A DNA stretch of 64,000 bases from Deltaproteobacteria bacterium (GCA_016219225.1 JACRBX010000047.1:3846-67845); one strand, 5' to 3'; numbered from the stretch's first letter, positions 15,218-56,908 are shown. The notes: generated by a model not told the origin, from the letters alone. Translations and numbers: made by a program.

Positions 15218-15260
15218 AACCAGCATCCAGCATCCAGTAACGAGTAACCAGTAACCCGCA
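15218..15260. repeat. 7-nt-period tandem repeat array (CCAGCAT / CCAGTAA units)
   Basis: ccagcatccagcatccagtaacgagtaaccagtaacc read directly. Confidence 0.7.
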
Positions 15261-17213
15261 TCAAATATCCGTTCTCATTTTCTGGAGAACAATAACCAGG
15301 ACCACCAATCCCAGACCGATGGCATCATAAAGCCACGAAGAATAAACCAGCATCAAGCCGCCGGCGGCCAGGAAAATACGTTCCATCCCATTGGCCCTTT
15401 TTAAAAACCAGGCATCCACGCCACCGGCCAGGGCGGCAATGCCGATCATGGAAGTGAAGGAGGTCCAGAGGATCTTGGGCCAGGGGCCGGACAAAAGCAG
15501 GCCGACCCCATCGGGATGCAAGGTGAACATGAATGGGACGATGAAGGCCGGCAGGGTGTATTTCCAGGCCATCATGGTGGTTTTAAAAGGGTTCCCACCG
15601 GTCAGGGCCGCCGCGGCAAAGGGGGAGAGGGCCGTGGGCGGAGAAACTTCGGATAAAACGGCATAGTAGAAAATAAACATGTGGGCCGCATAATCCGGAA
15701 CCTTGAGCATGATCAGGGCCGGGGCGGCAATAACCGCGCCGATGATATAAGAGGCTGTTACCGGGACCGCCAGACCGATAACCCACATCAATATCCCCGT
15801 AAATACACAAGTCAGGAATAAATTACCTCCGGCATAGCTGATGACGATAGAACTGAATTTCAGCCCCAATCCGGTCAGGGTCACCACCCCGACAATGATG
15901 CCGGCGCTGGCGCAGGTGGCGGCCACCCCTAATACGCCGATAGAACCGGATCGCAGGGCGGCAATTAATTTTTTGGGTTTTAAGGCCGTTTCGGATCTGA
16001 AAAAGCTCACCCCAAAGGCGATCAGGGTGGCATAAAAGACCCCCATAATGGGCGTAAAACCCACGACCATCAGGACCACGATGGCAATCAAAGAGGTAAA
16101 ATGAAACCAATAGCGCCAGGTTAATTGCTTTAGGCTATAGGTCTCATCGATGGAGACTCGTTGGGCGCCGAATTTTTTGGCGTCAAACTCGACCATCAGA
16201 AAGATGGATAAGTAATAGAGGAGGGTGGGCATTACCGCCATACGCAGGACATCGAGGTAGGAGATTTTTAAAATCTCGGCAATCAGAAAGGCGGCCGCTC
16301 CCAGGACCGGCGGCGAAATGATGGCCCCTATCCCCCCGGCCGAAAGCAATCCACCGGCCGATTCCTTGTCATATCCGGCTTTGGCCAGCATGGGATAGGC
16401 CACAGATCCCAAGGTAACGGTCGTAGCCACCCCGCTGCCCGAAGGCCCACCTAAAAGAAAGGAGGCTAAAGTCACGGTCCGGCCGGCACCGGTAGGTTTC
16501 CGGCCCATAGCGGCAAAGGAAAAATCGATAAAGAATTTACCGGCCCCGGAATATTCCAGAAAGGCTCCATAAATGGTAAATAGAATTATAAAGGTGGCGG
16601 AGACATCGATCGGGACGCCAAAGATCCCTTCCAGGGTCATATACATGTGGCCGACGATGCGTTCCACATCATAGCCGCGATGGGTCCAGGGGGACGGCAA
16701 TTGAGGGCCCATATAGGCATAGATCAAAAAAAGAATACTGATAAAGGGCATAATCCAGCCGGTGGCCCGTCGGACGACCTCCAGGACCAGCAAGATAAAA
16801 ATGATCCCAAAGGCCTTATCCCAGAAAGTGGGTGTCACCGCCCGGTAGATGAATTCTTCAAAGTCAACTAACATATAGACGATGGTGGCTACTCCCAGGA
16901 AGGCCAGACCGATGTCATACCAGGCGATGCGATTTTTTAGTCTTTTTAAGGGGGGAAAGACCAGGAAGCCTAAAAAGAAGACAAAAGCTACATGTACTCC
17001 CCGAAGGATCTGGGTGGTCACCGTCCCCACCGCGGCATAGAGGTGATATAGGGACATGGCTACGGCCATAATAGTGATAAAGGTTTCGAAAGGTCCCGAA
17101 AGCCTTCGGGTGACCCCTTCTTCTTCTTCAATATATTTTTCTGCTTCCTTTATCCGCTCTTCATTGATCAAAGGTTCCGAAGATTCCTGGTCCCCTCTTG
17201 GTTCTGAATCCAT
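15261..17213 (-). CDS. TRAP transporter fused permease subunit (TAXI-type DctQ/DctM fusion)
   Basis: 650 aa, ~16 TM helices; operon with a DUF1850 protein and a TAXI binding protein. Confidence 0.8.
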   Translation of the reverse strand: MDSEPRGDQESSEPLINEERIKEAEKYIEEEEGVTRRLSGPFETFITIMAVAMSLYHLYAAVGTVTTQILRGVHVAFVFFLGFLVFPPLKRLKNRIAWYDIGLAFLGVATIVYMLVDFEEFIYRAVTPTFWDKAFGIIFILLVLEVVRRATGWIMPFISILFLIYAYMGPQLPSPWTHRGYDVERIVGHMYMTLEGIFGVPIDVSATFIILFTIYGAFLEYSGAGKFFIDFSFAAMGRKPTGAGRTVTLASFLLGGPSGSGVATTVTLGSVAYPMLAKAGYDKESAGGLLSAGGIGAIISPPVLGAAAFLIAEILKISYLDVLRMAVMPTLLYYLSIFLMVEFDAKKFGAQRVSIDETYSLKQLTWRYWFHFTSLIAIVVLMVVGFTPIMGVFYATLIAFGVSFFRSETALKPKKLIAALRSGSIGVLGVAATCASAGIIVGVVTLTGLGLKFSSIVISYAGGNLFLTCVFTGILMWVIGLAVPVTASYIIGAVIAAPALIMLKVPDYAAHMFIFYYAVLSEVSPPTALSPFAAAALTGGNPFKTTMMAWKYTLPAFIVPFMFTLHPDGVGLLLSGPWPKILWTSFTSMIGIAALAGGVDAWFLKRANGMERIFLAAGGLMLVYSSWLYDAIGLGLVVLVIVLQKMRTDI

Positions 17214-17264
17214 AGATCATCCTTTTTCCCCTGATACTCTCCGGGAAGTTCATAGTATAGGAAT

Positions 17265-17723
17265 TTAATGGGTTCGTATTTCTATCAGAGTGCCTTCCGG
17301 CAATAAGGTGGATAGGGATATTTTTTCTGTTCCCCATTCTAACCGGACTTCCCCGATAGGAGATATCAGCATCGGGATCTTGCCGATTTTTCTGGAGAGC
17401 CTGACCCAGTCAGAGGTAGATTCTTCAAGGCCATAATATTCCAGGACCGCCGGGCTGCCGGTTTTTATCCTGTCCAGCCAGATTGAACCTTCTGAATCGA
17501 TTAAAAAAGCTTCCCAAACCCAGGTGTCGTAAATCGAATTGCGATGAATCAGGAAGAACTGATCCCCCGGGATAATCGGTCTTTCCCAATAGACCCGGCC
17601 GGCATCCCTTAATACCACTTGAAGCAAAGTGGTCGTGTGAGCTGGTAAAGGCAACAGGACCCACAACAGGATCAGGAGAATGGCCGGCAGGCGTTTTTTT
17701 CTTTTTCGATCCCTGGGTTCCAT
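17265..17723 (-). CDS. DUF1850 domain protein (TAXI-TRAP associated)
   Basis: 152 aa, N-terminal TM helix; position between the TAXI binding protein and the fused permease is typical. Confidence 0.6.
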   Translation of the reverse strand: MEPRDRKRKKRLPAILLILLWVLLPLPAHTTTLLQVVLRDAGRVYWERPIIPGDQFFLIHRNSIYDTWVWEAFLIDSEGSIWLDRIKTGSPAVLEYYGLEESTSDWVRLSRKIGKIPMLISPIGEVRLEWGTEKISLSTLLPEGTLIEIRTH

Positions 17724-17868
17724 TAGGCGCTTAGTACCGATACCTCGACAAAGTTTTGTTGATCAAGGGGCGAACTTCCTCATTTTGCTTCGTCGGTGCC
17801 CACGTCAGGTGGGTATGATGGTTTAACACGCCAATATGAATAATAAATATCGAATTATGAATTTTTTT

Positions 17869-17932
17869 CCTTCCTTCGATATTCATTATTCGATATTTGA
17901 TATTTTCATGTTTCGTAGTGCCCCATAGTGGC
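17869..17932. repeat. Repeat related to the hdrL leader repeat (acgaaacatgaaaat ... atcgaat motif), inverted orientation
   Basis: The reverse complement matches 41325-41385 (cacgaaacatgaaaatNNgaatatcgaat..atgaatatcgaagga). Confidence 0.55.
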
Positions 17933-17944
17933 AAGAGGGGTTTG

Positions 17945-18937
17945 TTAGATTTTTGCCCCTTTTTCCTTATAATACTTGACCGCTCCCGGATGGTAAGGAA
18001 TAGGGGTGCCATGCACCGCCCCTTCCAGGGTCAGGTGGTTGGCCTCTTTATGAACGGCCACCAGTTCCGGTTTATGGGCAAACAAGGTTTTTAAGATATT
18101 ATAAGCCAGGGCGGCATCCAGTTTTTCATGGCAGATCAAGATATTGGCGACGGCGGCCACATGGGTGTCCGAAGCAATTCCAGGGTAGGTGTTTTTGGGG
18201 ATGTTTCCTTTGAAATAGACCGGTCCGTATTTGGCCACCATTTTGGCTACACCATCCTCGTGGCCGATCAGTTTAATTTTGATCCCCGGCGTAGCGGCGA
18301 TATCCAGGATGGAAGCGGTCGGCAGCCCTCCGTCCCAGAAATAGGCATCGATCTTATTATCTTTCAAGGCCCCGGCCGATTCGCTGGCCCCCAGCCGATC
18401 CCGGGTAATATCCTTGTCGGGATTAATACCATAAGCCTCCAAAACCCGTAAGGCCTTAACTTCCGTCCCTGATCCCGGGGCACCGGTCGATATTTTTTTC
18501 CCTTTCAGGTCGGAGACTTTATTGATGCCTTTTCCATCCAAGGCCACGACATGCATAAAGTTGGAATAGAGTACGGCCAGATTGCGGATGGGGAGTTTAT
18601 CCTTGAATTTCCCGGTCCCCATATAGGCATCATAAGCCACATCACCCATGACAAAACCCAGATCGGCCTTTTGGGCGGCCACCAATTTGCAGTTGTCCAC
18701 CGAGGCGGCGGTGACTTCGGCCGTTACCTCCACCCCAGGCAAATATTTGGTCAGGACTGCGGCCATCCCTCCCCCATAGGGGTAATAGACCCCCCCGGTC
18801 CCCCCGGTAACGACGGATAGCCGGACTTTGGTTTGGGCTAAAACCTGGTCCGGGGAATAAATCAGGATTCCCAATCCGACAGCACTGGAAATTTTTAGAA
18901 AATCCCTGCGATTCAAATAATGACTTTTCCTCTCCAT
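17945..18937 (-). CDS. TAXI family TRAP transporter solute-binding subunit (Tat signal)
   Basis: N-terminal RRDFLK twin-arginine motif; TAXI/Imp-like periplasmic binding protein pattern. Confidence 0.8.
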   Translation of the reverse strand: MERKSHYLNRRDFLKISSAVGLGILIYSPDQVLAQTKVRLSVVTGGTGGVYYPYGGGMAAVLTKYLPGVEVTAEVTAASVDNCKLVAAQKADLGFVMGDVAYDAYMGTGKFKDKLPIRNLAVLYSNFMHVVALDGKGINKVSDLKGKKISTGAPGSGTEVKALRVLEAYGINPDKDITRDRLGASESAGALKDNKIDAYFWDGGLPTASILDIAATPGIKIKLIGHEDGVAKMVAKYGPVYFKGNIPKNTYPGIASDTHVAAVANILICHEKLDAALAYNILKTLFAHKPELVAVHKEANHLTLEGAVHGTPIPYHPGAVKYYKEKGAKI

Positions 18938-19018
18938 AAGTAGCCTCCTAAAATAGTTATGCGTTGATCGGGATTATTCCCTTATTTCAAACCATCTAAC
19001 CGGCCAAACTTTAAAAAA

Positions 19019-19240
19019 TTGTTATCAGTTTAGCCTTTTGAAAAATTAGAAGCTTTTACTTGAAAATTCTGACCTGCTTGCCCCGTCATTCCGGATTCCG
19101 TCCCGGAGGGACTACACCCCGGAGGGTGAAAACGGGAATCCAGATGTCATGCTGAGCCGAAAAGAACCTGGATTCCCGTTTTCACGGGAATGACGAAGAG
19201 GTTATCGGCGTTTTTTAAAAAGTAAAACTGATACGATCAA
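19019..19240. repeat. MITE-like palindromic element, copy 2 (inverted relative to copy 1, with a ~30-nt insertion in the core)
   Basis: The arms ttgttatcagtttagccttttgaaaa and gttatcggcgttttttaaaaagtaaaactgatacgatc match the copy-1 arms in reverse orientation; core gtcattcc...ggaatgacg. Confidence 0.7.
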
Positions 19241-20856
19241 TGCACCTTTTTATCATATTTATCCCAGAAGGGATCACGCAAACCCTTTTTATAGAGTTTT
19301 CCTGATCCGGTCCGGGGTAAATGATCGAGAAAGGTTATCGACTTCGGGGCCTTATAATGGGCCAGGTTTGTTTTACAAAACCGGATAATTTCCTCCTCGG
19401 AGGCTTGTTGTCCTTCTTTCAATACCACGGCGGCGTGCACGGCTTCCCCCCATTTTGCATCCGGGACACCGAAGACCGCGGCCTCAAGGGTCTTGGGAAA
19501 CTGGTATAAGATATTTTCCACTTCAGTGGAATAGACATTTTCTCCTCCGGTCAAGATCATATCCTTTTTCCGGTCGACGATATTCACATACCCCTCTCCA
19601 TCGATGACCGCCAGGTCCCCGGTATGAAGCCAGCCGTTTTGGATGGCCTTTTCGGTTTCTTCCGGCAGCTTCCAATAACCCTTGGTGATCGTGTCCCCCC
19701 GGACAATAATTTCACCCACCTCCTGATCATCCGGCCGGACCTCTTCCCCGTTCTCCCGGACTACCTTCAGAGAAACGCCGATAAAGGCCCTGCCGGTCTT
19801 GGCCTTGTAGACGAATTGTTCTTCAGGGGGCAATTGTTTCAGATGTCCCTTCAATAGGGAAAGGGTCAGATAGGGGCTGGTTTCCGTCATGCCGTAGGTC
19901 TGAATGTAATCGCAGCCGAACCCCTGCATAATTTTCCGAACCACCTCCGGGGCGATGGGTGCCCCGCCGCTTAACAACACCCGAAGATCCGGGAAGATAT
20001 AGCCCGAAAAATCCGGATGATGGATCAGCAGATTCAACATGGTGGGGATCATGTTGGAAATCGTCACCTTTTCCCGGACCATGGACTCCAGAACCGCTTT
20101 GGGTTCAAATTCCCTAACCAGAACATGGGTGCCGCCCACCCAGGTAATGGCCCAGGTGGCCCAGGCATCGGCCAGATGGAAAAGGGGAGCCACATGGATC
20201 CAGACGTCGGAATCCGTCAACTGCAGTTCGGCAATAGTCCCCAGGGCATGGAGGTAGCCATTTTTGTGGCTCAGCATGACCCCCTTGGGTCTCCCGGTCG
20301 TTCCGCTGGTGTAATAAATCTGGGCCGTAGCCTCATCACCGGGTCCCCAATCCTGGAGCGGGTCTGAAGAGGATGTCCTTAACGCCTCTTCGTAATCTAA
20401 CCCTCGAGACCGGGTCTGGTCATTTGGATCCACCCAGAGGGTGGTTTTAAGCGAAGGGGTTAAAGACCCAAGGCCTTCGATCTTAGGGAAAAAATCAGAA
20501 TGGGCGATTAATAATCGGGATTCCGAATCCTTGAGAATAAATTCTATTTCCCGGGTGGATAAACGATAATTGAGGGGGACGAGAATGGCTCCGATCAGGG
20601 CGGTGGCAAAATAGGCCTCCAGAAAAACATGACAGTTGTAATGCAAAATGGCCACCGCCCGGCCCGGTCCCAATCCCTGGGCTTTCAGAAAATGGGCCAG
20701 CCGACCGATCCGTTCAAAAAACTGTTCATAGCTCCAAGTTGCCTGATGGCAGCGAATAGCCTCTTTTTGAGGATAGGCCCGGGCCGCTTTAAATAAAAGT
20801 TCGGCTAAGTGAATGGAAACCCCTCCTTTCTCAATTCCGCTTATGGTACTTTCCAA
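19237..20856 (-). CDS. AMP-dependent acyl-CoA synthetase/ligase
   Basis: YTSGTTGRPKGV AMP-binding motif; C-terminal GKLYKKGLRD. Confidence 0.85.
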   Translation of the reverse strand: MESTISGIEKGGVSIHLAELLFKAARAYPQKEAIRCHQATWSYEQFFERIGRLAHFLKAQGLGPGRAVAILHYNCHVFLEAYFATALIGAILVPLNYRLSTREIEFILKDSESRLLIAHSDFFPKIEGLGSLTPSLKTTLWVDPNDQTRSRGLDYEEALRTSSSDPLQDWGPGDEATAQIYYTSGTTGRPKGVMLSHKNGYLHALGTIAELQLTDSDVWIHVAPLFHLADAWATWAITWVGGTHVLVREFEPKAVLESMVREKVTISNMIPTMLNLLIHHPDFSGYIFPDLRVLLSGGAPIAPEVVRKIMQGFGCDYIQTYGMTETSPYLTLSLLKGHLKQLPPEEQFVYKAKTGRAFIGVSLKVVRENGEEVRPDDQEVGEIIVRGDTITKGYWKLPEETEKAIQNGWLHTGDLAVIDGEGYVNIVDRKKDMILTGGENVYSTEVENILYQFPKTLEAAVFGVPDAKWGEAVHAAVVLKEGQQASEEEIIRFCKTNLAHYKAPKSITFLDHLPRTGSGKLYKKGLRDPFWDKYDKKVH

Positions 20857-20901
20857 GCTTTAATAGAGAGTCGGAAAAAATTCAACCAAAATTTTTGTTT
20901 T

Positions 20902-21669: not shown

Positions 21670-21725
21670 ATATTCCTACCTTTCCCTAACGGAATCGAGT
21701 CTGACCTTTTCCCGGATCCCTTTAT

Positions 21726-22511: not shown

Positions 22512-22563
22512 GACAACTCCTTTTATTAGATTCTAACGCTCTATATCTGAGGATTTATCCTCT

Positions 22564-24154: not shown

Positions 24155-24171
24155 GGAGAAAGCCTTTTAAT

Positions 24172-24882: not shown

Positions 24883-24883
24883 G

Positions 24884-27545: not shown

Positions 27546-27705
27546 TAACCGTGTTCTCTTAAGAAAAGGCCCAAGGCGCAGGGTTCAAGGTTCAAGGAAA
27601 ACCGAGGGCCGGGGCGGGTTTAAAACCCACCCCTACAAAGGTTGAGGACTATTCATAGGTTTTCGAACCGAACTCCGAACTCTTAACTCCGAACTTTCTA
27701 TCGGG

Positions 27706-32764: not shown

Positions 32765-32840
32765 GGGAACGAATCAGGAAAATATATTAAAAAAGGGCTA
32801 TAGACCAGGAGCTGTAGGTTAAACGATTTCAAGTTTTTCT

Positions 32841-32874
32841 TCGCCCATAGCCCATAGCCTATTGCCCATAGCCC
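32841..32874. repeat. 7-nt-period tandem array (GCCCATA units) overlapping the 3' end of the hydrolase gene
   Basis: gcccatagcccatagcctattgcccatagccc. Confidence 0.65.
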
Positions 32875-33683
32875 TTTTGAGGTATTCTCCACTTGAAACT
32901 TGCATCTTGCATCCTGAAATTTAACAGGACGAAATCCCGAACAGCCTGATTGACCTCTTTGTGTTTTTCCAACATCACCAGGTGTCCTGCTCCGGGAATC
33001 AGGATGAGCCGGGAGGAAGCTATCTTTTTTTGAAGAAAGTGAGAAGAGGCCGGTGGAGTCATGACATCTTGATCTCCGACCAGGATCAGCGTTGGGATTT
33101 TGATAGTTGAGACTTCTTCCTGTCGATCGAAATGATCACAGGCCTGAAAATCTCCCTGAATAACGGGGATCGGGGTTTGCTCCATTAACTGGATGGATTG
33201 CCTGATAAGCTGGGGGGGAGTCCCCTGGGCAAAGCTCCCTTGAATGATCTTGGCCAGGGTTTCGTCCGGCTGTTTCTTTAATCCGGATACTATCTTGGGA
33301 GAAACTCCCAAAGTGGCCCCGGTGGCAATCAAAATCAAACCTTGGATTTTCTCCTGAAATCGCAGGCCAATCTCCAGAGCGATAGCCCCGCCCATAGAAT
33401 GACCGCCGAGGAAAAAGGTGTCGAAGAAAGGCCCCGTCAGGGTTTCGTGAACCCATTGGGCGTAAGAGGAAATGGAGGTCCTCCCCGGACCCGTAGTATT
33501 TCCATGACCGGGGAGTTCCAGGGTCAGTATGTTTAAAAAACGATCCAAGCCCCTCAGTTGCGGCAGAAAAGACTGGGAACTTCCGCCGGCCCCGTGAATC
33601 AGGACCAGGGTGGGTCTCTTAGGGAGCAAGCCGGAGTCGCCTGTCCGGAAACCTACATCAGCCGGCAGACCGTAACGTTGCAT
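32859..33683 (-). CDS. alpha/beta fold hydrolase
   Basis: HGAGGS oxyanion region and GHSMGG nucleophile elbow. Confidence 0.75.
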   Translation of the reverse strand: MQRYGLPADVGFRTGDSGLLPKRPTLVLIHGAGGSSQSFLPQLRGLDRFLNILTLELPGHGNTTGPGRTSISSYAQWVHETLTGPFFDTFFLGGHSMGGAIALEIGLRFQEKIQGLILIATGATLGVSPKIVSGLKKQPDETLAKIIQGSFAQGTPPQLIRQSIQLMEQTPIPVIQGDFQACDHFDRQEEVSTIKIPTLILVGDQDVMTPPASSHFLQKKIASSRLILIPGAGHLVMLEKHKEVNQAVRDFVLLNFRMQDASFKWRIPQKGYGQ

Positions 33684-33790
33684 GGTATGGAAATTTTGAG
33701 GAAGTTTTTTCAGACAGGATTTACAGGATGGACCGGATAACTTGTTGACCTTAAATCCTGTTTGTCCTGTCTGAAAAAAAGTTTGTCTTT

Positions 33791-37798: not shown

Positions 37799-37811
37799 GT
37801 GAATAAGCATA

Positions 37812-37890
37812 GGGTTCGGAGTTCGGAGTTGGGAGTTTGTAGACGGACTATACTATAAACCTTATACTCCGAACTCTAAACTCCGAACTT
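37812..37890. repeat. Inverted pair of 7-nt-period arrays (GTTCGGA)n ... (TCCGAAC)n, potential long hairpin
   Basis: gggttcggagttcggagttgggagttt ... actccgaactctaaactccgaactt. Confidence 0.7.
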
Positions 37891-39788: not shown

Positions 39789-39790
39789 TC

Positions 39791-41305: not shown

Positions 41306-41544
41306 CATGCCCGCACGAACACCACGAAACATGAAAATGCGAATATCGAATATCGAATATCGAATCATGAATATCGAAGGAGAGTTTCCTTTTAATTCCG
41401 AAATCCGAAATCTAAAATCCGAAATCGGAATATATTTTCGTACTAAGCCCCCATGCCTGTTTTGTAGGCCACGAACAATGAAAATGGGTTTCGCCGAACG
41501 CCGAACGCTTAACGCCGAACGTTTTTTTCGTACTAACTCCCATG
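41306..41544. repeat. Tandemly duplicated ~100-150-nt leader unit with three different embedded 7-mer arrays (ATCGAAT, TCCGAAA, GCCGAAC); the hdrL ATG lies inside the unit's terminal motif
   Basis: Each unit runs catgccYg ... cacgaaNcaNtgaaaatgNg ... 7-mer array ... tttcgtactaaScccatg; the second unit ends with the hdrL start codon. Confidence 0.6.
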
Positions 41545-45963: not shown

Positions 45964-45967
45964 AAGA

Positions 45968-46146
45968 AAGGTGTAAGGTACAAGGTATAAGGTGTAAGGT
46001 AAAACCGTTCGGCGAACATTAAATGTTCAGTGTGCGTCAATCAACCCATTTAAACCTGACATCTTGAACCTGGGCTAACTATTGGGGGAAGGTGTAAGAC
46101 ACACGGTTGGTTTTACCTTGAACCTTGAACCATGTACCTTGCACCG
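45968..46146. repeat. Inverted pair of AAGGTNN 7-mer arrays around a ~100-nt spacer (which contains the palindrome gaacattaaatgttc)
   Basis: aaggtgtaaggtacaaggtataaggtgtaaggtaaaacc ... ggttttaccttgaaccttgaaccatgtaccttgcacc. Confidence 0.7.
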
Positions 46147-46156
46147 TTAATTTATT

Positions 46157-46573
46157 ATGTTTGAATCATTCGAACCTAAAATCATTGCCATGGTCTGTAC
46201 CTATTGTACCTATACGGCGGCTGATATGGCCGGGTCCATGAGATTGCAATATCCCTGGAATGTGCGGATTGTCAAATATCTTTGTACCGGCAAGATCGAT
46301 ATTCAGCACATCTTGAAAGTCTTTGAAAAAGGGGCTGATGCCATCCTGGTCGGCGGCTGAGAAATCGGCGACTGCCATTTCCTGGAAGGAAATCTAAGAG
46401 CCAAAGAACGAGTGGAATATGCTAAAGAACTGTTGAAAGAAATCGGTCTGGAACCCGGGCGACTCGAGATGTTCCACATCGGGGCCTCCGATGCTCCGGC
46501 CTGGGCCAAAGCCGTGACGGAGATGACCAACAGGGCCAGGGATCTGGGGGCGAACCCACTTAAAAGATATTAG
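46157..46573 (+). CDS. mvhD: MvhD-like [2Fe-2S] hydrogenase delta-subunit homolog, selenocysteine-containing (in-frame UGA at 46358-46360)
   Basis: The ORF stops at TGA in GADAILVGG-TGA-EIGDCHF, exactly where MvhD has the conserved Cys of G-C-x-x-GDCHY; translation continues in frame for 70 more codons with the conserved MvhD C-terminus (GNLRAKERVEYAKELLKEIGLEPGRLE) to TAG 46571-46573; hairpin atttcc-tggaa-ggaaat at 46377-46393. Confidence 0.7.
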
Positions 46574-46627
46574 ACAGGATTAACAGGATCCTATTAGATA
46601 ATATTTTTCATAGGTAAAGGATTTTGA

Positions 46628-47311: not shown

Positions 47312-48176
47312 GTTTGCCGAAGGATTACGATCCGGGACTTTTATGGTGACCTGCGAGTTGGATCCGCCGAAGGGAACCGATCCAACAAAAGCAAAAAAGA
47401 TAATGGATCTCCTTAAAGACAAGGTACAGGCCGTAGTGGTTTCCGATAATCCGCAGGCCCGAATGCACATGGCCCCCATCGGATTTTGCCGTTATCTCCT
47501 GGATCAGGGCATCGAACCGGTCATGACCATCACCTGCCGGGACCGTAATCGCCTGGCCTTGCAATCCGATCTTTTGGCGGCCGTGGGGCTCGGCATTCAA
47601 AATATATTAGCCGTAACCGGTGATTATATCACCTGGGGCGACCACCCGGAAACCAAACCGGTTTATGATCTGGATTCCGTTCAGTTGATCCGGGCCATTT
47701 CCCTGCTGAATGAAAATAAGAACCTTTCCGGGAATGGGGTTGAAGGGCCATCCCCTTCATTCACCATCGGCGCCGCGGTGACGCTGGCCGGCAACCCGAT
47801 CCTGCCTCAGGTTTTGAAGTTTAGGAAAAAGGTGCAGGCCGGGGCCCATTTTTTTATGAGTCATCCGATTTTTGATCTGGCCGGTGTAGAGGAATTCTTT
47901 AAAGAGAAGAGACCTGACCGGAAAACCCCTTTACTGGCCTCGGTTTGTTTGTTAAATGAGACCCGGATGCGGGAATATGCCCCCGGCAAATACCCCGGTC
48001 TATATATTCCCGAGACTGTTATGAAAAAATTTCGGACCTTAAGTTCGGGAGAATTTCAGGCCGGGATGATGTCCCACACGGTCAGGCTGATTGAAGAGAT
48101 AAAAAAAGACGGCCGCTTCCAGGGGGTCCATTTGATGCTTAACGGCGATGAAGAGCGGATTGTGGAGCTCATTTAA
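47295..48176 (+). CDS. metF: methylenetetrahydrofolate reductase
   Basis: TCELDPPKG N-terminal motif and overall MetF pattern; GGAGG Shine-Dalgarno. Confidence 0.8.
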   Translation: MPGPNKFAEGLRSGTFMVTCELDPPKGTDPTKAKKIMDLLKDKVQAVVVSDNPQARMHMAPIGFCRYLLDQGIEPVMTITCRDRNRLALQSDLLAAVGLGIQNILAVTGDYITWGDHPETKPVYDLDSVQLIRAISLLNENKNLSGNGVEGPSPSFTIGAAVTLAGNPILPQVLKFRKKVQAGAHFFMSHPIFDLAGVEEFFKEKRPDRKTPLLASVCLLNETRMREYAPGKYPGLYIPETVMKKFRTLSSGEFQAGMMSHTVRLIEEIKKDGRFQGVHLMLNGDEERIVELI

Positions 48177-48210
48177 GTTCGGAGTTTTGAGTTCGGAGTT
48201 CGGAGTGAGG
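48177..48210. repeat. GTTCGGA 7-mer array just downstream of metF
   Basis: gttcggagttttgagttcggagttcggagtgagg. Confidence 0.65.
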
Positions 48211-48241
48211 ACTTTGAAATGCAGAAGGAAATAATTACAAG

Positions 48242-49288
48242 GTGAATCCCACTAATTCCAAAGTACTCATCCTCGGCGGCGGCATTGCCGGCCTAACGGC
48301 TGCCCTGGCCCTTGGCCGTTTGAATATACCAGTGGAACTGATCGAAAAATCAGAGGCCCTGGGAGGAATGGCCCGGAATTTTTGTTGTAAGGCCACAGAA
48401 GCCTGCCAGCAATGCGGTGCCTGTCTTATAAATGATGCCCTGGCGGCCTTGACTAAAGAACCCTTTATTGAGATTCATTTGCAAACCGAGTTAACCGCAT
48501 TAAAGATGGAAGCCAAGGAATTTCTCTATACTTATAGCCGCCCTGGGGGGGGCGGCGAGGGAAGGGCCCAGGCCCTTCTCCTGGCAACCGGTTTTACCCC
48601 CTTCAGGGCTGAAGACAAACCCCAGTATCGGTATAAAACCTTGCCCAATGTCCTGACCGGGTTAGATCTGGAAAGACAACTTAAAGACACCGGGAACATC
48701 GTCAGACCATCCGATCGGACCATCCCCCAGTCCATAGCCTTTATTCAATGTGTCGGCAGCAGAGACCTTCATTCAGGACATCCCTATTGTTCTCAGGTTT
48801 GCTGCGGTTATGCCCTGCGCCTGGCCAACCTGATCAAGCATAAGAATCCGGAGATGGCCGTCACTGTTTTTTATATGGACATCCAGACCTTCGGCCAGAA
48901 TTTCCCCCTCTTTATGGAACAAAGCCGAAAGCAAATAACTTTTGTCCGTTCCATTCCCGGCGAAATACAAAAGGGGGAGAACGATCAGGCCGTCTTAACC
49001 TTCCAGAAGGAGACCGGGGCCGGCAGTCAAAAACAAGCCTTTGATCTGGCCGTGCTCTCCATCGGCATCAGACCCGGGCCGGACCATTTGTTTTTAGCGC
49101 AACGATTGGGAATTTCACTAACGCCCGATGGTTTCCTGAGTAAAGACGAAGGGTCTTCCTTCCGGCCGGAAGGGATTTTTTTTGCCGGCACTGTTCAAGG
49201 GCCTAAAGGCATCGAGCGAAGCATTTCCCAGGCCTATCAGGCCGCCGAAGAAGTGGCCGATTATTTGAAAACGAGGTCGAACCAGTGA
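48242..49288 (+). CDS. short HdrA-like FAD-dependent oxidoreductase (lacks the ferredoxin insert)
   Basis: LILGGGIAGLTAA Rossmann motif; FIQCVGSRDLHSGHPYCSQVCC cluster; HdrA C-terminal motif FFAGTVQGPKGIERSISQA. Confidence 0.7.
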   Translation: MNPTNSKVLILGGGIAGLTAALALGRLNIPVELIEKSEALGGMARNFCCKATEACQQCGACLINDALAALTKEPFIEIHLQTELTALKMEAKEFLYTYSRPGGGGEGRAQALLLATGFTPFRAEDKPQYRYKTLPNVLTGLDLERQLKDTGNIVRPSDRTIPQSIAFIQCVGSRDLHSGHPYCSQVCCGYALRLANLIKHKNPEMAVTVFYMDIQTFGQNFPLFMEQSRKQITFVRSIPGEIQKGENDQAVLTFQKETGAGSQKQAFDLAVLSIGIRPGPDHLFLAQRLGISLTPDGFLSKDEGSSFRPEGIFFAGTVQGPKGIERSISQAYQAAEEVADYLKTRSNQ

Positions 49289-50943
49289 TTCCCCTGGAAG
49301 AATTTAAAAAGATTCCCAGGGTGCTCATCCTGGGGAAGGGACTGACGGCCCAGGAAACGGCCGCACAACTGATTTCCTTAGGCTATGAGGTACTGTCGGT
49401 CGATCCCGATGACCAAAGGCCATTGCTGCGGATCGAAGGTTTTGCCGGGGACTTCCAGGTGCAATTTAAATCCGGACAAAAGCAATGGACTGAGGCTGTA
49501 GGCGCCATTGTTTTTGCTCCTGAGTTGGTTGCTGAACCCAAACCAGATGTCTATTCCTTGACCGCTTCCGATCAAATCATAGGTATTGATGGCCTGGTTG
49601 AACTTCTTTCCCCCTCACCTTCACCCCATGGAATGGAAGAATTGGTTCCAGCGGGCCAGTCTCCTTCGGCCTATCCGGCCTTCAGTTCTTCTTCTTATAT
49701 TGCCTTCCTGGTTGGGTTACAGGACGAAGGAAACGTGGCCGAAATGGCCAGGATCTTTTGGCTGGCCTTAAAGATTCGAAAGGAATATCAATCACAAGTT
49801 TATATCTTTTGCCGTCATATCAAGGTGGCCGAAGAGGGGATGGAGAGGCTCTACCAGACTTGCCGGGACGAAGGGGTGATTTTTTTCAAGTTTGATGGGG
49901 CAGGGCCGGAAATGGTCAGGATTGGAGAATCGATCGGCTTGGAATTTGAAGATGCCGTGTTAGGACAGCCTTTTGAATTAAAGCCCGATCTTCTGGTTAT
50001 TGAACCCCTCCAGGTGCTGCCCCGGGAAATCCGGGAATTGGCTGTTTCCGCTCAAATCGGGATGGATGGAATGGGTTTCCTTCAGCCGGCCAATGTTCAC
50101 CTGCTGCCCCAGGCCTCAAAGCGGGAGGGGATATTTATCGCCGGTCCGGGAAAAGGCCCCATGGTCCCTCAAGCCTGTTTGGAAGAAGCCCGGGCCGCGG
50201 CGTTGTCGATCCATCATTTTTTTGAAGGCCGGATTTCAGACCAGATGGACCGGGAGGTTACGGTTGATAAGGGGCTTTGCACCATCTGTCTAACCTGTCT
50301 CCGCTACTGTCCCCATCAGGCCATAGGCTTTACCCACCGGGTTTTTATCCACCCTCTGGCCTGCCGGCGTTGCGGCATCTGTGCCAGTGAATGCCCCATG
50401 GATGCTATACAAATCGCCGGTTTTTCCGATCAGGAGGTGGAGCTGAAATTAGCGGCCCTCCAGGAAAGATGGGAGCAAATGGAAACCGGTCTGGTCAGGA
50501 TGGTTATTTTCGGTTGTCAGCGGTCGGCCGGGAGGGCCTGGGAGGAAGCTCAAAGCTCAAAGCTCAAAGTTCAAAGCGACAACGAAGAGGTGCAAGGTAC
50601 AAGGTATAAGATACAAGGTGAAATCGAATTTATTGCACTGCCCTGTGCCGGAAAGCTGGACCCCGATTATATACTGAAAGCCTTGAGTATGGGGGCCGAT
50701 GGGGTGCTGGTTCTGGCCTGTCCGGAAGAAAATTGTAAATCCTTACACGGGAATACTTACGCCCGGGAGCGTATCCAGGAGGCCCGGCATTATGTGGAAG
50801 AGGCGGGCCTCAATCCGGAAAAGATCCGTTTTAACAATTTATCGAGCAACATGGTTTGGTATTTAAAGGAAATTATCGGGGAATTTATGGATGAACTAAG
50901 CGAATCCAAAATTCCGCAATCCGCAATCCGCAATCCGAAATAG
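49285..50943 (+). CDS. fusion protein: degenerate HdrA-like domain + 2x[4Fe-4S] ferredoxin + MvhD-like domain, with an internal repeat-encoded insertion and repeat-encoded C-terminal tail
   Basis: CTICLTCLRYCP / CRRCGICASECP motifs; MvhD motifs VIFGCQRSAG ... IALPCAGKLD ... GADGVLVLACPEENC; 7-mer arrays at 50546-50616 and 50896-50943 lie in frame. Confidence 0.65.
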   Translation: MIPLEEFKKIPRVLILGKGLTAQETAAQLISLGYEVLSVDPDDQRPLLRIEGFAGDFQVQFKSGQKQWTEAVGAIVFAPELVAEPKPDVYSLTASDQIIGIDGLVELLSPSPSPHGMEELVPAGQSPSAYPAFSSSSYIAFLVGLQDEGNVAEMARIFWLALKIRKEYQSQVYIFCRHIKVAEEGMERLYQTCRDEGVIFFKFDGAGPEMVRIGESIGLEFEDAVLGQPFELKPDLLVIEPLQVLPREIRELAVSAQIGMDGMGFLQPANVHLLPQASKREGIFIAGPGKGPMVPQACLEEARAAALSIHHFFEGRISDQMDREVTVDKGLCTICLTCLRYCPHQAIGFTHRVFIHPLACRRCGICASECPMDAIQIAGFSDQEVELKLAALQERWEQMETGLVRMVIFGCQRSAGRAWEEAQSSKLKVQSDNEEVQGTRYKIQGEIEFIALPCAGKLDPDYILKALSMGADGVLVLACPEENCKSLHGNTYARERIQEARHYVEEAGLNPEKIRFNNLSSNMVWYLKEIIGEFMDELSESKIPQSAIRNPK

Positions 50944-50947
50944 AACG

Positions 50948-51415: not shown

Positions 51416-51510
51416 TAATCGAAGTGGTAACGGTTTATTAAAATATCACAGCCGGGGGCGGCTGTGCTACATAAGACTGTGCCCCAAAAGATGGTTGAAT
51501 AAAAACAGGG

Positions 51511-52407: not shown

Positions 52408-52408
52408 C

Positions 52409-52840
52409 ATGGAGATCGAAGGCTATTTTTTTCCGGATGATTTATGGTATGATAAAAACCACTTCTGGGCCCGCATCGATGGAGACCAGGTCGTGATGGG
52501 GACAACGGATTTTGCGCAGAAACTGGCCGGTGATATCGGGTATGTGGAAATCCCCGAAGAGGGCCAGAAGGTTCAGCAGGGGAAACCCTTTGGTTCCATC
52601 GAATCCGGGAAATGGGTGGGGCGGATCTACGCTGTTTTTTCCGGAAAGGTGACGGTGGTCAATGAAGCCCTGGAAGATGAGCCGGAATTGATCAATTCAT
52701 CCCCCTATGATCAGGGCTGGATCTGTCAAATCGCTCCGGAAAATCTGGAGGCGGAAAAAGGGAATCTGATGCCGGCTTCGGAATTGAAACCCTTTATTGA
52801 AGCCGAGATGGCCAGGGTTAAGGATTTGATGAACAAATAA
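52409..52840 (+). CDS. glycine cleavage H-protein-like lipoyl-carrier protein
   Basis: GcvH pattern ...FGSIESGKWVGRIYAVFSGKVTVVNEAL with candidate lipoyl-Lys in ESGK; GGAGG Shine-Dalgarno 8 nt upstream; starts 1 nt after the hdrB stop. Confidence 0.65.
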   Translation: MEIEGYFFPDDLWYDKNHFWARIDGDQVVMGTTDFAQKLAGDIGYVEIPEEGQKVQQGKPFGSIESGKWVGRIYAVFSGKVTVVNEALEDEPELINSSPYDQGWICQIAPENLEAEKGNLMPASELKPFIEAEMARVKDLMNK

Positions 52841-52843
52841 AAT

Positions 52844-52926
52844 CAGGCGCAAGGCGCAGGGCACAAGGCGTAAGGTAAAAAAAGAAGAAGATTTTCCTTG
52901 AACCTTGCGCCTTGTGCCTTGCGCCC
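52844..52926. repeat. Inverted pair of AAGGCGN 7-mer arrays (hairpin-forming)
   Basis: caggcgcaaggcgcagggcacaaggcgtaaggtaaaaa ... ttttccttgaaccttgcgccttgtgccttgcgcc. Confidence 0.7.
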
Positions 52927-52945
52927 GCGATAAAGGAGTGCTGTC

Positions 52946-55528
52946 ATGGGATACATTGAAGAGTTAAAGGCCATCGTTGGTGAGGATAATGTCCATACCG
53001 GGAAAATTGATTGTTTCAGTGTCTCCAGGGATCTGTCGGTTCACGAGGGGTTTCCGGAAGCCATCGTTTTCGCCCGTACGACCGAAGAGGTGGTCGGTGT
53101 AGTGCGAATAGCCGGGGCACACAAAATTCCGGTGACGCCCCGGGGGGCCGGGACCAGTGTGACCGGCGCGTCCCTGGCCTCTAAGGGCGGTATCCTGCTG
53201 GACCTTTCCCGGATGAACAAGATCAAAGAGCTCAATAAAAATGACCGGTATGTGATTGTCGAACCGGGGATCGTCTGCAACGCCCTGAATGCCCAATTGG
53301 AACCCACCCACTTTTTCCCTCCCGATCCGGGCAGCGCACCAATCTGCACGGTCGGAGGGATGATCGCCTGTAACGCCAGCGGGGTGCGGGCCGTCAAGTA
53401 CGGGACCACCCGGGACTACGTCATGGGGTTGGAGGTGGTGCTGGCTGACGGCCGGGTTATTCATACCGGCTCCCTGGCGCCGAAGACCGCCGCCGGTTAT
53501 GACCTGACCCATCTGTTCGCCTCTTCCGAGGGGACCCTGGGCATCATCACCGCGGCCACTTTGAAAATCCTGGCCAAGCCGCCTTATATCGCCTTTGCCA
53601 AGGCCACCTTCCCCTCTGTGAAGGCGGCCGGTGATGCCGTGGAAAAGATGCTGACCTCGGGGATCCGCCCGTCTTCCTGCGAAATCCTGGACGACATGTC
53701 GATCGAGGTGGTCAAACAGGCCATGAATCTCGAGTTTGCTCCTGAAGTTAAATGTATTCTGTTCATTGAAATCGACGGCCACAAATTAGAGGTTCAGGAT
53801 TACATTACCCGGATCGACGTCATCTGCCAGGAGGCGGGAGGGCTGGGAAATGAATGGTCCGATGATCCGGCCAAGCGGCTGGTTATGTGGTCCGCCCGAC
53901 AGGGTTTGACGCCCTCCCTGTCGCGGATCAAGCCCGGCTACAGGCTCATGCCTATCGTGGAGGATTTCGGCGTGCCCATCAGCCAGATCCCGGCCACGAT
54001 CGCCGCCATCCAGGAGGTGGGCCGGAAAAATAATATCCCTGTGGCCACCTTCGGTCATATCGGCGACGGTAATCTGCATGCCGTTATCATTATCGATGTG
54101 CGGAAGCAAGAGGAGTGGGAGACCATGCGAAAGGTCGCCCAGGGTTTTGTGGACCTTACCCTGAAATTCAATGGCACTCTGACCGCTGAGCACGGTCTGG
54201 GAATGGCCAAATCGCCTTATATTAAGACCGAGCTGGGCAACAGCCTGGAGGTCATGGAAGGGATCAAGCAGACCCTGGATCCGGGAAATATCCTCAATCC
54301 GGGTAAAATGGGTTTTCAGGACAGTATCCTGGATATCTTCGACCAGTTCGCCTTCGCCCACCTGGTGGAGCACCCGGAAGACCGGCAGAGCTTCGGTGAA
54401 AAAATCGATAATGAGATCCTGGCCTGTATCCAGTGCGGATTCTGCCGGGGCGGCTGTCCAACTTACGGCCAGACCGGCCTCGAATCCATGAATGCCCGGG
54501 GCCGGGTACTGATGGCCTTTAGTCTGATGAGCGGCCGACTGCAACCCTCGGAAGAAATGGCCACCCGTCTTTTTCAATGCACGAACTGCTTGAACTGCAA
54601 GTTCACCTGTCCTTCCAGAGTGGAAGTGGCCGATATCGTCCAGGCGGCCCGTAAACGGTTGGTGGACAGCGGACTTCTTCCGCCGGTATTTCAGAGCAGC
54701 GGGAAGAGCATCGCCCAGTACGGCAACCCCTTCGGGGAGCCCAGGGAGAAAAGGACCGATGTCTTCCCGGCTGGCTTTATACCGGCCCAAAAAGGCGCCG
54801 AGGTCCTGCTCTTCGGCAGCTGTGTGGGGTCTTACCAGGATATCAACCTGATCCCCAATTTGATGACCATCCTGGATAAGGCCGGCATCTCCTATTCGGC
54901 CCTGGGACAGGAAGAAGACTGTTGCGGTTATTTGAGCTACCTGGTGGGGGCCGAGGAAGATTTCAGGAAATGTGTTCAGGCCAATACTCAAAAGTTTGCC
55001 GACCTGGGGGTCAAGGAGATCGTCACCAGTTGTCCTGGCTGTTTCCGGACCCTGTCCAAGCTTTATCCGGCTTACGGCGGGGCAGGGGATATCAAGGTCC
55101 ACCATGTGGTCACTTATCTGAAAGAACTGATGGGCCAGGGGAAGATCCCTTTGAAGGAGAGCAGCCCCATGGTCGTGGCTTATCATGATCCCTGCGATCT
55201 TGGGCGTCACATGCAGGTCTTTGAAGAGCCCCGGGATATCTTAAAACAAATCCCCGGCGTACAACTCAATGAATTTAAGATGAATCGCCTCTTAGCCAAG
55301 TGCTGCGGCAGCGGGGGTGGGGTTAAGGGTTTTGACAACCCCCTTAGTCAGGAGATTGCCTACCAGCGGGTCCTCCAGGCATTGGAAGTCGGTGCTGAGG
55401 TGATCGTTTCCGCCTGCCCCTCCTGCAAGAGCAATTTGACCCAGGGGGCGGCCCGTCTGCGGAAAGAGAAGAAGGGAAAAATCAAAGTTAAGGACATCAC
55501 CGAGGTCATTGCCAATGCCTTGGCCTAA
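52946..55528 (+). CDS. FAD-linked oxidase (GlcD-like) fused to a 4Fe-4S/CCG (GlpC/HdrD-like) domain; D-lactate/2-hydroxyacid dehydrogenase-like
   Basis: FAD-binding PCMH region (RGAGTSVTG); C-terminal CxxCxxC ferredoxin motifs and two CCG motifs (CCGYLS, KCCGSGG). Confidence 0.75.
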   Translation: MGYIEELKAIVGEDNVHTGKIDCFSVSRDLSVHEGFPEAIVFARTTEEVVGVVRIAGAHKIPVTPRGAGTSVTGASLASKGGILLDLSRMNKIKELNKNDRYVIVEPGIVCNALNAQLEPTHFFPPDPGSAPICTVGGMIACNASGVRAVKYGTTRDYVMGLEVVLADGRVIHTGSLAPKTAAGYDLTHLFASSEGTLGIITAATLKILAKPPYIAFAKATFPSVKAAGDAVEKMLTSGIRPSSCEILDDMSIEVVKQAMNLEFAPEVKCILFIEIDGHKLEVQDYITRIDVICQEAGGLGNEWSDDPAKRLVMWSARQGLTPSLSRIKPGYRLMPIVEDFGVPISQIPATIAAIQEVGRKNNIPVATFGHIGDGNLHAVIIIDVRKQEEWETMRKVAQGFVDLTLKFNGTLTAEHGLGMAKSPYIKTELGNSLEVMEGIKQTLDPGNILNPGKMGFQDSILDIFDQFAFAHLVEHPEDRQSFGEKIDNEILACIQCGFCRGGCPTYGQTGLESMNARGRVLMAFSLMSGRLQPSEEMATRLFQCTNCLNCKFTCPSRVEVADIVQAARKRLVDSGLLPPVFQSSGKSIAQYGNPFGEPREKRTDVFPAGFIPAQKGAEVLLFGSCVGSYQDINLIPNLMTILDKAGISYSALGQEEDCCGYLSYLVGAEEDFRKCVQANTQKFADLGVKEIVTSCPGCFRTLSKLYPAYGGAGDIKVHHVVTYLKELMGQGKIPLKESSPMVVAYHDPCDLGRHMQVFEEPRDILKQIPGVQLNEFKMNRLLAKCCGSGGGVKGFDNPLSQEIAYQRVLQALEVGAEVIVSACPSCKSNLTQGAARLRKEKKGKIKVKDITEVIANALA

Positions 55529-55603
55529 AAGCAATTCACTTCTGACAGGATTTACCGGATTAATAAAATCCTGTTAATCCTGTCTAACCCAAAAGGATCA
55601 ACT

Positions 55604-56821
55604 ATGAAAGAATTTCAATCATCCAAACTACTCAAAAAAATCATGGCCGATCATTTTCTGGATATGGATCGGGCCGCCAAAGAGGGAAATCCGAAGATCG
55701 CCTGGTGCACCAGTGTCGGTCCGGCCGAGCTCTTGCGGGGCATGGGTTTTTTGGTTTACTTTCCGGAAAACCACGGGGCCATGCTGGGGGCCACCCGGAT
55801 GGCCACGGATTTTATCCCGTCGACCAATGCCCTCGGCTATTCCCCGGATATTTGTTCGTATCTGACCTGCGATATTGGGTCTTATCTCAAGAAGACGACC
55901 CCCCTACAAAAGGCTTATGGGATACAATCCGTTCCCAAGCCCGATGTGCTGGTTTACAATACCAACCAATGCCGGGACGTGAAGGACTGGTTTTCCTGGT
56001 ATGCCCGGGAACTGAAGGTCCCTTTGATCGGGGTCCATTCTTTTCGAAACATCGGGACCATCACCCAATACGAAATTCAGGATATTGCCGAGCAGATTAA
56101 AGGCTTGATCCCGACCCTGGAAGCAGTCAGCGGCCGGAAATTCGATATGGACCGGTTTAAAGAAACGGTACGGTTATCCAGGGATTGTTCCCGACTCTGG
56201 CGGGCCACCCTGGAAACCGCTGCGGCCGTCCCATCGCCCTGGACCTTTTTTGATGCCACCATCCACATGGCACCGGCGGTTGTGGCCAGAGGCACCCAGG
56301 AGGCGGTGGATTATTATCAGACCTTAATACCCGAATTAAAACAAAGGATCGCAGATGGTGTCGCGGCCGTAGATGGAGAGAGACACCGCCTCTACTGGGA
56401 AGGTATGCCGATCTGGGGAAAACTTCGTCCTTTATCCGAACTGCTGGCCTCGTTGAAAACCTGCGTGGTGGCCTCGACCTATTGCAATAGCTGGATCTTC
56501 GATCAGCTCGACCCCGATGAGCCCTTTGAAAGCATGGGCCGGGCTTATACCGAGCTGTTTATTGTCAGGGACGAGGCTTATAAGGAACGGTATATTGAAA
56601 GCTGTCATCAACTTTTTAAATTCGATGGGATCCTCTTTCACGATGCCAAGACCTGTCCCAACAACTCCAATAATCGGTACGGCATGCCCGAGAGGCTGGC
56701 CAAAAAATTAGGCCTGTCCACCCTGACGATTAACGGAGATTTATGCGATTTGCGTTGTTATTCCGAAGAACAGGCCAAAACCCAGATTGAGGCCTTTATT
56801 GAACAGTTGGAAGAAAGATAA
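55604..56821 (+). CDS. 2-hydroxyacyl-CoA dehydratase family protein (HgdB/BcrB-like), single subunit
   Basis: ~400 aa, conserved Cys positions and family-like motifs; adjacent to an activase-type ATPase. Confidence 0.6.
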   Translation: MKEFQSSKLLKKIMADHFLDMDRAAKEGNPKIAWCTSVGPAELLRGMGFLVYFPENHGAMLGATRMATDFIPSTNALGYSPDICSYLTCDIGSYLKKTTPLQKAYGIQSVPKPDVLVYNTNQCRDVKDWFSWYARELKVPLIGVHSFRNIGTITQYEIQDIAEQIKGLIPTLEAVSGRKFDMDRFKETVRLSRDCSRLWRATLETAAAVPSPWTFFDATIHMAPAVVARGTQEAVDYYQTLIPELKQRIADGVAAVDGERHRLYWEGMPIWGKLRPLSELLASLKTCVVASTYCNSWIFDQLDPDEPFESMGRAYTELFIVRDEAYKERYIESCHQLFKFDGILFHDAKTCPNNSNNRYGMPERLAKKLGLSTLTINGDLCDLRCYSEEQAKTQIEAFIEQLEER

Positions 56822-56825
56822 AAGA

Positions 56826-56908
56826 AAGGTACAAGGCGTAAGGCTCAAGGTAAAAACGGGGAAATTAAAAGGTCTAACCCTTGTGCCTTGTGCCCTGCGC
56901 CTTGCGCC
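56826..56908. repeat. Inverted pair of AAGGNNN 7-mer arrays
   Basis: aaggtacaaggcgtaaggctcaaggtaaaaac ... cccttgtgccttgtgccctgcgccttgcgcc. Confidence 0.7.

Follow-up and report, generated by a model that had tools for sequence, protein, structure and literature searches.

The 64,000-nucleotide (nt) stretch of DNA from a Deltaproteobacteria bacterium analysed here (GCA_016219225.1, JACRBX010000047.1:3846-67845; hereafter the window, with positions counted from its first letter) carries a dispersed family of short tandem arrays with a strict 7-nt period. Three or more units follow each other head to tail, most array bases lie in intergenic DNA, and at six loci two arrays stand in inverted orientation and can pair as the arms of a hairpin. 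We assign the arrays with high confidence to the class of heptanucleotide simple sequence repeats (SSR) that resemble the cyanobacterial short tandemly repeated repetitive sequences (STRR). The phenomenon itself is already described; what is new is the occurrence of this class in Desulfobacterota, with several unit families that do not suit G-quadruplexes and with arms that covary. As regards function, the reading we favour, with slightly less than even confidence, is modelled on repetitive extragenic palindromic (REP) elements: arrays born by slippage would be kept as REP-like intercistronic mRNA hairpins.

Period, placement and unit families

Tandem Repeats Finder returned 47 rows for the window, 20 of them with period 7 and 2.1-6.0 copies each. 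In a lag-autocorrelation scan (threshold at least 17 of 21 self-matches, lags 4-15), lag 7 gave 16 regions and every other lag none, the harmonic at 14 excepted, against about zero in 20 dinucleotide-preserving shuffles; the density of the arrays is thus well above that of shuffled sequence. All twelve loci listed in an earlier sequence-only reading of this DNA were confirmed, the period-7 rows matching each coordinate exactly or within a few nt. Two further places came to light, namely a hairpin (17826-17904) and, at 32891-32918, a second array. That the arrays are assembly artefacts can be dismissed, since independent assemblies from other samples hold arrays at orthologous positions.

Counted on a curated gene list, 79% of the 733 array bases are intergenic, in a window whose intergenic share is 8.2%. 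Arrays are found in 10 of the 33 spacers that measure 40 nt or more, and in neither of the two divergent (promoter) spacers. At nine of the eleven loci that are not gene-internal, the array starts 2-11 nt past a stop codon or overlaps it (loci are lettered in Table 1). The bias towards gene 3' ends, and the location directly after stop codons, are therefore strong in the window, as had been proposed. The earlier reading has to be corrected in that several arrays are translated (loci D, I and J). Locus I encodes the in-frame loop AQSSKLKVQS...QGTRYKIQG in the MvhD/FlpD domain of open reading frame (ORF) 49285-50943, and homologues of this protein down to about 60% identity carry, at the same loop and at the tail, peptides for which these arrays are the sole conceivable source. 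In the loop of homologues, ESSKLKAQSN corresponds to AAGCTCA x3 and YKVQGE to CAAGGTN repeats, while tail peptides such as NPQSAIRNPKWK are translated AATCCGN arrays. The 7-nt repeat process is thus a source of protein sequence variation in loops and tails. It also has a practical side for annotation, the arrays moving apparent stop codons and lengthening ORFs. The ORF itself is an HdrA-like/MvhD fusion, for which an exact look-up of the protein gave no identical record; heptamer-derived loop and tail peptides occur clade-wide among its homologues.

Table 1. Heptamer array loci of the window, with predicted folds and gene context (unit sequences in sense orientation where stated)
Locus	Position	Strand	Arrays and fold	Context
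A	15218..15256	-	single array GGTTACT/GGATGCT (sense); no hairpin; fold z = -0.2	few nt past stop (15261-15263) of DctM-type transporter gene
B	17826..17904	-	inverted (ATATCGA)n pair, arms 17826/17875; hairpin; fold z = -3.7	40 nt past stop of TAXI-type binding-protein gene
B, composite element	17724-17944	-	~220 nt	homologous to locus F
C	27566..27698	-	inverted pair, arms 27566/27668; AGTTCGG arm then CCTTGAA arm (sense); GC-rich inner stem-loop; fold z = -1.3	10 nt past stop of LivK-like binding-protein gene, ahead of permease gene
D	32839..32918	-	two direct arrays (32839/32891), GATGCAA + TATGGGC (sense); fold z = -1.4	encodes ~20 final residues and stop codon of alpha/beta hydrolase gene
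E	37810..37890	+	hairpin GTTCGGA x4 / ACTCCGA x3.5, arms 37810/37866; fold z = -4.6	11 nt past stop of LivK-like binding-protein gene; 40 nt ahead of permease gene
F	41334..41521	+	three direct arrays CGAATAT, TCCGAAA, CGCCGAA; two-module element homologous to B	268-nt spacer between livF and hdrA-like gene; element not found at the same spacer of relatives
G	45966..46145	+	hairpin AAGGNNN x5 / NNNCCTT x4.4, arms 45966/46111; 105-nt loop; -71.7 kcal/mol	starts 2 nt past hdrA-like stop; ends 11 nt before mvhD
H	48176..48211	+	single array AGTTCGG x4.4; fold z = -2.3	overlaps metF stop codon
I	50541..50617	+	two direct arrays (50541/50588), AAGCTCA x4.6 + AAGGTAC x4.6	in-gene
J	50907..50945	+	single array AATCCGC/A x4	C-terminal tail (PQSAIRNPK) and stop of ORF 49285-50943; 6 nt before next start codon
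K	52845..52925	+	hairpin AAGGCGC x4.4 / GCGCCTT x3.3, arms 52845/52896; 24 consecutive pairs; -54.8 kcal/mol; z = -6.9	starts 4 nt past gcvH-like stop; ends 20 nt before next gene
L	56826..56909	+	hairpin AAGGNNN x4 / NNNCCTT x4.3, arms 56826/56878; fold z = -5.4	starts 4 nt past stop of HGD-D-family gene, ahead of BcrAD/BadFG-family ATPase gene

The description of a strict 7-nt period with variable units stands for the period and for the variability, but the units are not arbitrary and fall into a few related families. AAGGNNN, paired with NNNCCTT, is found at loci C, G, K and L as well as in one coding array, 50588. The family of GGAGTTC, whose partner is xxxCCGA, is seen at C, E and H and, in the forms ACTCCGA, AATCCGA and ACGCCGA, in two arrays of F and J; ATATCGA occurs at B and F. 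The units thereby combine a constant 4-nt core (AAGG, CCGA or GGAG) with a variable 3-nt remainder. Such cores would suit periodic binding sites for a nucleic-acid-binding protein, be it a CsrA-like or cold-shock-type protein at GGA/AAGG or a DNA-binding regulator, as would the clustering of array size at about 4 units, and a similar idea has been proposed for TAACTGA repeats (PMC4679880). We nevertheless regard this as improbable: the cores differ among families, the motifs are buried in the stem at half of the loci, no candidate protein was found, and the non-core positions covary between arms, which indicates pairing over protein contacts.

A single composite element, about 220 nt long, is represented by copies at loci B and F, whose operons are unrelated, and the two arms at 27672 and at 37866 share 96% identity, whereas the paralogous genes there are alike to about 72%. 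Moreover, in five CCGAA-type arrays (27668-27696, 37866-37890, 41398-41426, 41494-41521 and 48175-48203) the penultimate unit is altered: TT, TA or AA stands in place of CG, and the remaining 2-3 positions of the unit vary by locus. Together with the presence in this lineage of a Y1 (RAYT-like, for REP-associated tyrosine transposase) transposase, these features could speak for miniature mobile elements bearing heptamer arrays and copied by a transposase, in the manner of miniature transposable elements with inverted repeats (MITEs) or of REPINs. We hold this to be distinctly unlikely, as terminal inverted repeats and target duplications were not found, the positions of most arrays are orthologous and stable across relatives, none of the 130 fetched loci contains the B/F composite motif, and the RAYT gene of the relative L008 is flanked by a hairpin that is not heptameric. 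The altered-penultimate pattern was also seen on an unrelated metagenome contig (L065, 10191-10233: AATCCAA AATCCAA AATCTAA AATCCAA).

The arrays had been held not to be classic REP elements, and we agree, because the REP/RAYT-type hairpin of the lineage has a different, non-heptameric sequence. A solo copy of this REP-like hairpin, CACAGCCGGGGGCGGCTGTGCTACATAA, lies at 51446-51474 in the spacer between an hdrC-like gene and a CCG-domain gene. In the same spacer of L008, a Y1-transposase (RAYT-like) gene (12146-12763) is located between copies of the hairpin at 12068-12095 and 12729-12756. The motif that flanks it, CACAGCC...GGCTGTG, occurs once in the window. The lineage, judging from these sequences, has a separate REP/RAYT system. 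A tie of the RAYT-like gene of L008 to the heptamer arrays was considered and rejected on account of these flanking hairpins, and no RAYT gene flanked by heptamer arrays was found in L008 or among the window ORFs that were screened, which were only some of them. The arrays are not CRISPR (short palindromic repeats, clustered and regularly interspaced) either, as the sequence-only reading had stated: repeat searches gave no 25-40-nt repeats with unique spacers of similar length.

Hairpins, conservation and turnover

Inverted array pairs are present at six loci, B, C, E, G, K and L. Among the loci of the sequence-only reading, 27566/27668, 37810/37866, 45966/46111, 52845/52896 and 56826/56878 are indeed inverted pairs, whereas 15218, 32839/32891, 41334-41521, 48176, 50541/50588 and 50907 are not, and the description fits about half of the loci. 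When RNA folding was compared with 200 dinucleotide shuffles, the z-scores of K (-6.9), L (-5.4), E (-4.6) and B (-3.7) were clearly below the shuffles. These z-scores support a structural role of the pairs, one part of the function suggested earlier, as do conservation and the compensatory changes that relatives show.

The other part, termination, is unlikely, since the hairpins are without a short loop and a U-tract and are located within operons. Stable stems directly behind stops, and the short T-rich stretches that follow E and L, could be taken as signs of Rho-independent terminators. However, terminator scans of the window picked up no array hairpin, the loops measure 10-105 nt with no consistent U-tract after the stems, and the hairpins lie between genes of the same pathway, 65-270 nt apart, in syntenic operons; we therefore consider terminators very improbable. 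No match to Rfam 15 was obtained at the gathering score across the whole window.

Hairpins B, C and E lie 3' of all three substrate-binding-protein genes annotated in the window. REP elements were first described after binding-protein genes, in enterobacterial transport operons, and they act, as Newbury and colleagues are said to have reported in 1987, as mRNA stabilisers. Two further patterns were set aside. The order "purine-rich arm first", seen in all six hairpins, was rejected as a transcription-linked bias: it is strand-symmetric and uninformative on strand because the reverse complement of a hairpin keeps the same arm order. The difference between sense and antisense energy at locus F (-52.7 vs -71.3 kcal/mol) is driven by base composition. 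Duplex energies computed between loci, from crudely extracted arms, were informative only in part: 9 of 16 5' arms ranked their own partner first or second, and all AAGG/CCTT arms cross-paired.

Nine distinct syntenic loci of uncultured Desulfobacterota (55-93% protein identity) were compared with the window. Period 7 is once more the sole enriched period in them, accounting for 26 arrays, while the remaining periods between 5 and 12 together account for 5. The spacer of locus G, after the hdrA-like gene, carries arrays in eight relatives, seven of which fold as a heptamer-armed hairpin; in the remaining one, L004, the arrays are kept with a weak fold (-20.6 kcal/mol). The spacer of locus K, after gcvH, carries arrays in six relatives, and all six fold as heptamer-armed hairpins, the arm pairs being AAGGCGC/GCGCCTT, GTTCAAA/TTTGAAC, AGGCATG/CGTGCCT or AAGGATA/ATCCTCG according to lineage. 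Thus, arrays conserved in position but not in sequence, which the sequence-only reading had proposed to look for, are found at spacers G and K, where the hairpins are kept, the units differ and the arms stay complementary.

Covariation was tested on an alignment of six K spacers with RNAalifold, using 500 shuffles and slid controls. The consensus has 23 predicted pairs, 9 of them with compensatory changes. In the real alignment 86.8% of cells are paired (75.5% when shuffled), 17 cells are changed on both sides (6.6 when shuffled) and the covariation score is 0.41 (0.23 when shuffled, at most 0.14 in slid controls); none of the 500 shuffles reached the observed value in any of the three measures. 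Moreover, the K spacer is 99% identical between the relatives L006 and L008, whose flanking genes are 89-93% identical. In both L008 and L010 many genes are broken into short calls, which resembles the frameshift errors of long-read assemblies, so that the coding identities of these two relatives are underestimates.

Other arrays change quickly. In comparison with one close relative, L001, whose genes are about 96% identical at the nucleotide level, arm 2 of G shows a loss of exactly two units (14 nt), a whole-unit copy change between strains of the kind that characterises the class, here seen with a single close relative. Locus J differs by a 15-nt in-frame indel, which is not a whole number of units, and the unit of H reads AGTTCGG in the window and ATTTCGG in L001. 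Identity falls to 0.77-0.89 in the array-containing windows of this comparison. The deletion, the indel and the rewritten unit point to unit slippage. Turnover is uneven: some loci undergo rapid unit-wise change and others are strongly conserved.

In the mechanism that we propose, arrays of 3-6 units would arise and turn over through unit-wise slippage, and they would persist only where tolerated, that is in transcribed spacers behind stops, in tolerant protein loops and in C-terminal tails. With two inverted arrays, the operon transcript would fold into an imperfect hairpin of about 25-40 pairs, whose stem would still pair after the gain or loss of a unit in one arm because both arms share the 7-nt period. 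Such hairpins would most likely serve as REP-like signals of mRNA stability or processing, either as barriers to 3'-exonucleases or as RNase III-type sites, and would set the relative expression of adjacent cistrons, for example of a binding protein and its permease.

The main rival of this proposal sees the arrays as a functionless by-product of a lineage-specific replication or repair bias, with frequent 7-nt slippage as their source, accumulation at every site that selection leaves uncleared, and DNA-level template switching (quasi-palindrome correction) keeping the arms complementary. The fast turnover of some arrays against a 96%-identical relative would fit it, as would the arrays in coding loops and tails and those that stand as structureless orphans, the way arrays abut stops as if expanding up to a coding constraint, their absence from a probably foreign low-GC gene cluster of the window, and the many-unit heptamer arrays that are common on unrelated metagenome contigs. 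It is less easily reconciled with the hairpins kept at two spacers (G and K) down to 55% protein identity, with a K spacer that L006 and L008 share more closely than the genes on either side of it, or with the surplus of G-U pairs that the sense strand shows. Self-renewal by slippage is compatible with all of these points, and we judge the neutral explanation somewhat unlikely.

Retention as mRNA hairpins remains our preferred reading, against which several points have to be set. Hairpin C folds no better than its shuffles (z = -1.3), and half of the loci are unpaired and without predicted structure (A, D, F, I and J), so that a hairpin role would cover part of the family only. The covariation test used six sequences and a structure derived from the same alignment, and template switching between arms at the DNA level could preserve complementarity without selection on RNA. 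The sense-strand fold is more stable than the antisense fold in 15 of 17 hairpins, with 73 G-U pairs against 48, which mildly favours a constraint at the RNA level, in a test whose hairpins are orthologous and not independent and whose differences are small. Finally, transcription, folding and any effect on mRNA are all inferred.

Host and neighbouring features

The closest relatives of the window are contigs of metagenome-assembled genomes from uncultured Thermodesulfobacteriota/Desulfobacterota (best protein identity 93%); named matches, Desulfobacca sp. and RBG_13_43_22, reach about 60%. A protein-based metagenome scan did not find relatives. According to Pfam, the window encodes two Liv-type ABC transporter operons and a TAXI/TRAP transporter, a cluster with an HdrA-like gene, MvhD, MetV/MetF, HdrBC-like genes and GcvH, as well as BcrAD-type and acyl-CoA ligase genes. 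The source bacterium is sulfate-reducer-like, and the arrays are indigenous to an uncultured Desulfobacterota clade. The first part of the window (1-15000) is a low-GC (0.43-0.48) cluster of glycan/O-antigen-type biosynthesis, with GT2 glycosyltransferase, DegT aminotransferase and epimerase genes. Arrays are present in none of its six spacers of at least 40 nt, compared with 10 of 27 in the remaining window, and a low-GC cluster without arrays is consistent with recently acquired DNA.

Other elements were noted in passing. A palindromic MITE-like element of about 200 nt is present in two copies of opposite orientation (15001-15195 and 19015-19226), with a perfect 29-bp inverted repeat at 15048-15125; one copy adjoins array A. 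Several spacers upstream of genes share a short motif, GACAGGATTNACNGGAT, made up of two ACAGGAT half-sites with about 10 nt between them (33709-33729, 46569-46596 and 55540-55587, the last also with an inverted copy); it may be a binding site of a regulator. The mvhD-like gene (46157-46573) has an in-frame TGA at codon 68 (GG*EIGDCHF), which probably encodes selenocysteine, and is annotated as two separate calls in relatives.

Known heptamer systems and significance

The sequence-only reading had left the pattern unclassified, whereas it matches a class on record, the heptanucleotide SSRs (PMC4692102, and Mrazek 2007 as cited in PMC4679880). As summarised in PMC4679880, Mrazek et al. 2007 found the heptanucleotide to be the commonest long SSR unit in most prokaryote genomes examined and proposed polymerase slippage as the cause. 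Period 7 dominates there among repeats of 5-11 nt, in scattered lineages, as it does here; unlike our data, that work is in this summary a statistical description in which hairpin pairing and conservation at orthologous spacers are not covered. Stretches with five AAGG cores spaced 7 nt apart numbered at least 120 in a scan of metagenomes. Among the matches listed, contig GC ranges from 0.37 to 0.72, and many contigs (for example L014, L033, L043, L065 and L086) hold several arrays of differing units, often as inverted pairs, so this array architecture is not peculiar to the present lineage. Some of the matches, TTTAGGG runs for example, are probably eukaryotic telomere repeats.

The GGGAATC arrays of Xanthomonas (Rehm et al. 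2015, PMC4692102) prefer about 4 units, form 70-75 inverted pairs per genome and are mostly transcribed, their positions being conserved while length and sequence vary. Xanthomonas and Nostoc GGGGA(C/T)T heptamers have been interpreted as G-quadruplexes (PMC4692102). The likeness to our arrays extends from the period, the size of about 4 units and the many inverted pairs to the enrichment between co-directional genes, the depletion in coding DNA and divergent spacers, the location within 50 bp of a stop or overlapping it, and the conservation of position among related species (PMC4692102). In contrast, each of those genomes has one G-rich unit, while here several families without G-tracts coexist, in a Desulfobacterota host and with arms that covary, and the published units do not occur in the window. 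Formation of G-quadruplexes, as proposed for those heptamers, could thus appeal to equal period, size and placement, but in 21 of our 22 arrays the number of G3 or C3 tracts does not exceed two, short of the three or more that a quadruplex requires, the exception being 32839-32874 (GCCCATA) with four C3 tracts (G3 on the sense strand), and we regard it as extremely improbable.

In Geobacter metallireducens, from a phylum neighbouring that of the host, elements built of four or five heptanucleotides in tandem occur in many copies, among them a GGACCGG family of 49 copies (PMC2700814). These elements and the TAACTGA arrays of Beggiatoaceae (PMC4679880) resemble ours as multicopy, mostly intergenic arrays of 2-6 heptamers, but each family has a fixed unit that is absent here. 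The TAACTGA arrays, unlike those of the window, lie just upstream of start codons (PMC4679880), and paired arms are not reported for the GGACCGG family (PMC2700814). REP elements, bacterial interspersed mosaic elements (BIMEs) and REPINs share with our hairpins the intergenic location within operons, classically after binding-protein genes (PMC3116915). They are, however, non-tandem palindromes about 20-40 nt long that share a single conserved sequence and are spread by RAYT (PMC3116915), as opposed to 7-nt arrays with locus-specific units. A literature search on heptamer arrays in Desulfo- taxa found nothing relevant.

Mazel and colleagues reportedly described heptanucleotide STRR in cyanobacteria in 1990. 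Like our arrays, STRR are heptanucleotide tandem arrays with several unit types per genome, mainly intergenic and lineage-specific; unlike them, they have a cyanobacterial host, and the arrays here are short and often paired. The units of STRR1-3 (CCCCAGT, TTGGTCA and CAACAGT) had no three-unit match with up to 3 mismatches in the window. The arrays are not STRR in the strict sense, gene content and relatives being those of Desulfobacterota.

Heptanucleotide repeats are over-represented in scattered bacteria, and this lineage offers a cleaner case, with units other than those of G-quadruplexes in 21 of 22 arrays, covarying arms and REP-like positions. Since the units are unfit for quadruplexes, the arms covary and the positions are REP-like, the relevant structure points to RNA or DNA hairpins and not to quadruplexes. 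A bolder view, which we think unlikely, is that paired arrays are widespread and selected "register-tolerant" RNA hairpins, whose stems would outlast unit gain or loss and could be made uniform again by slippage, and that a dedicated or polymerase-linked 7-nt copying mechanism writes arrays into genomes, protein loops included. If true, it would explain the heptanucleotide excess in scattered bacterial lineages and might explain the altered penultimate unit of five arrays. Loci K, G and E are concrete candidates for intercistronic mRNA control in energy-metabolism operons of Desulfobacterota.

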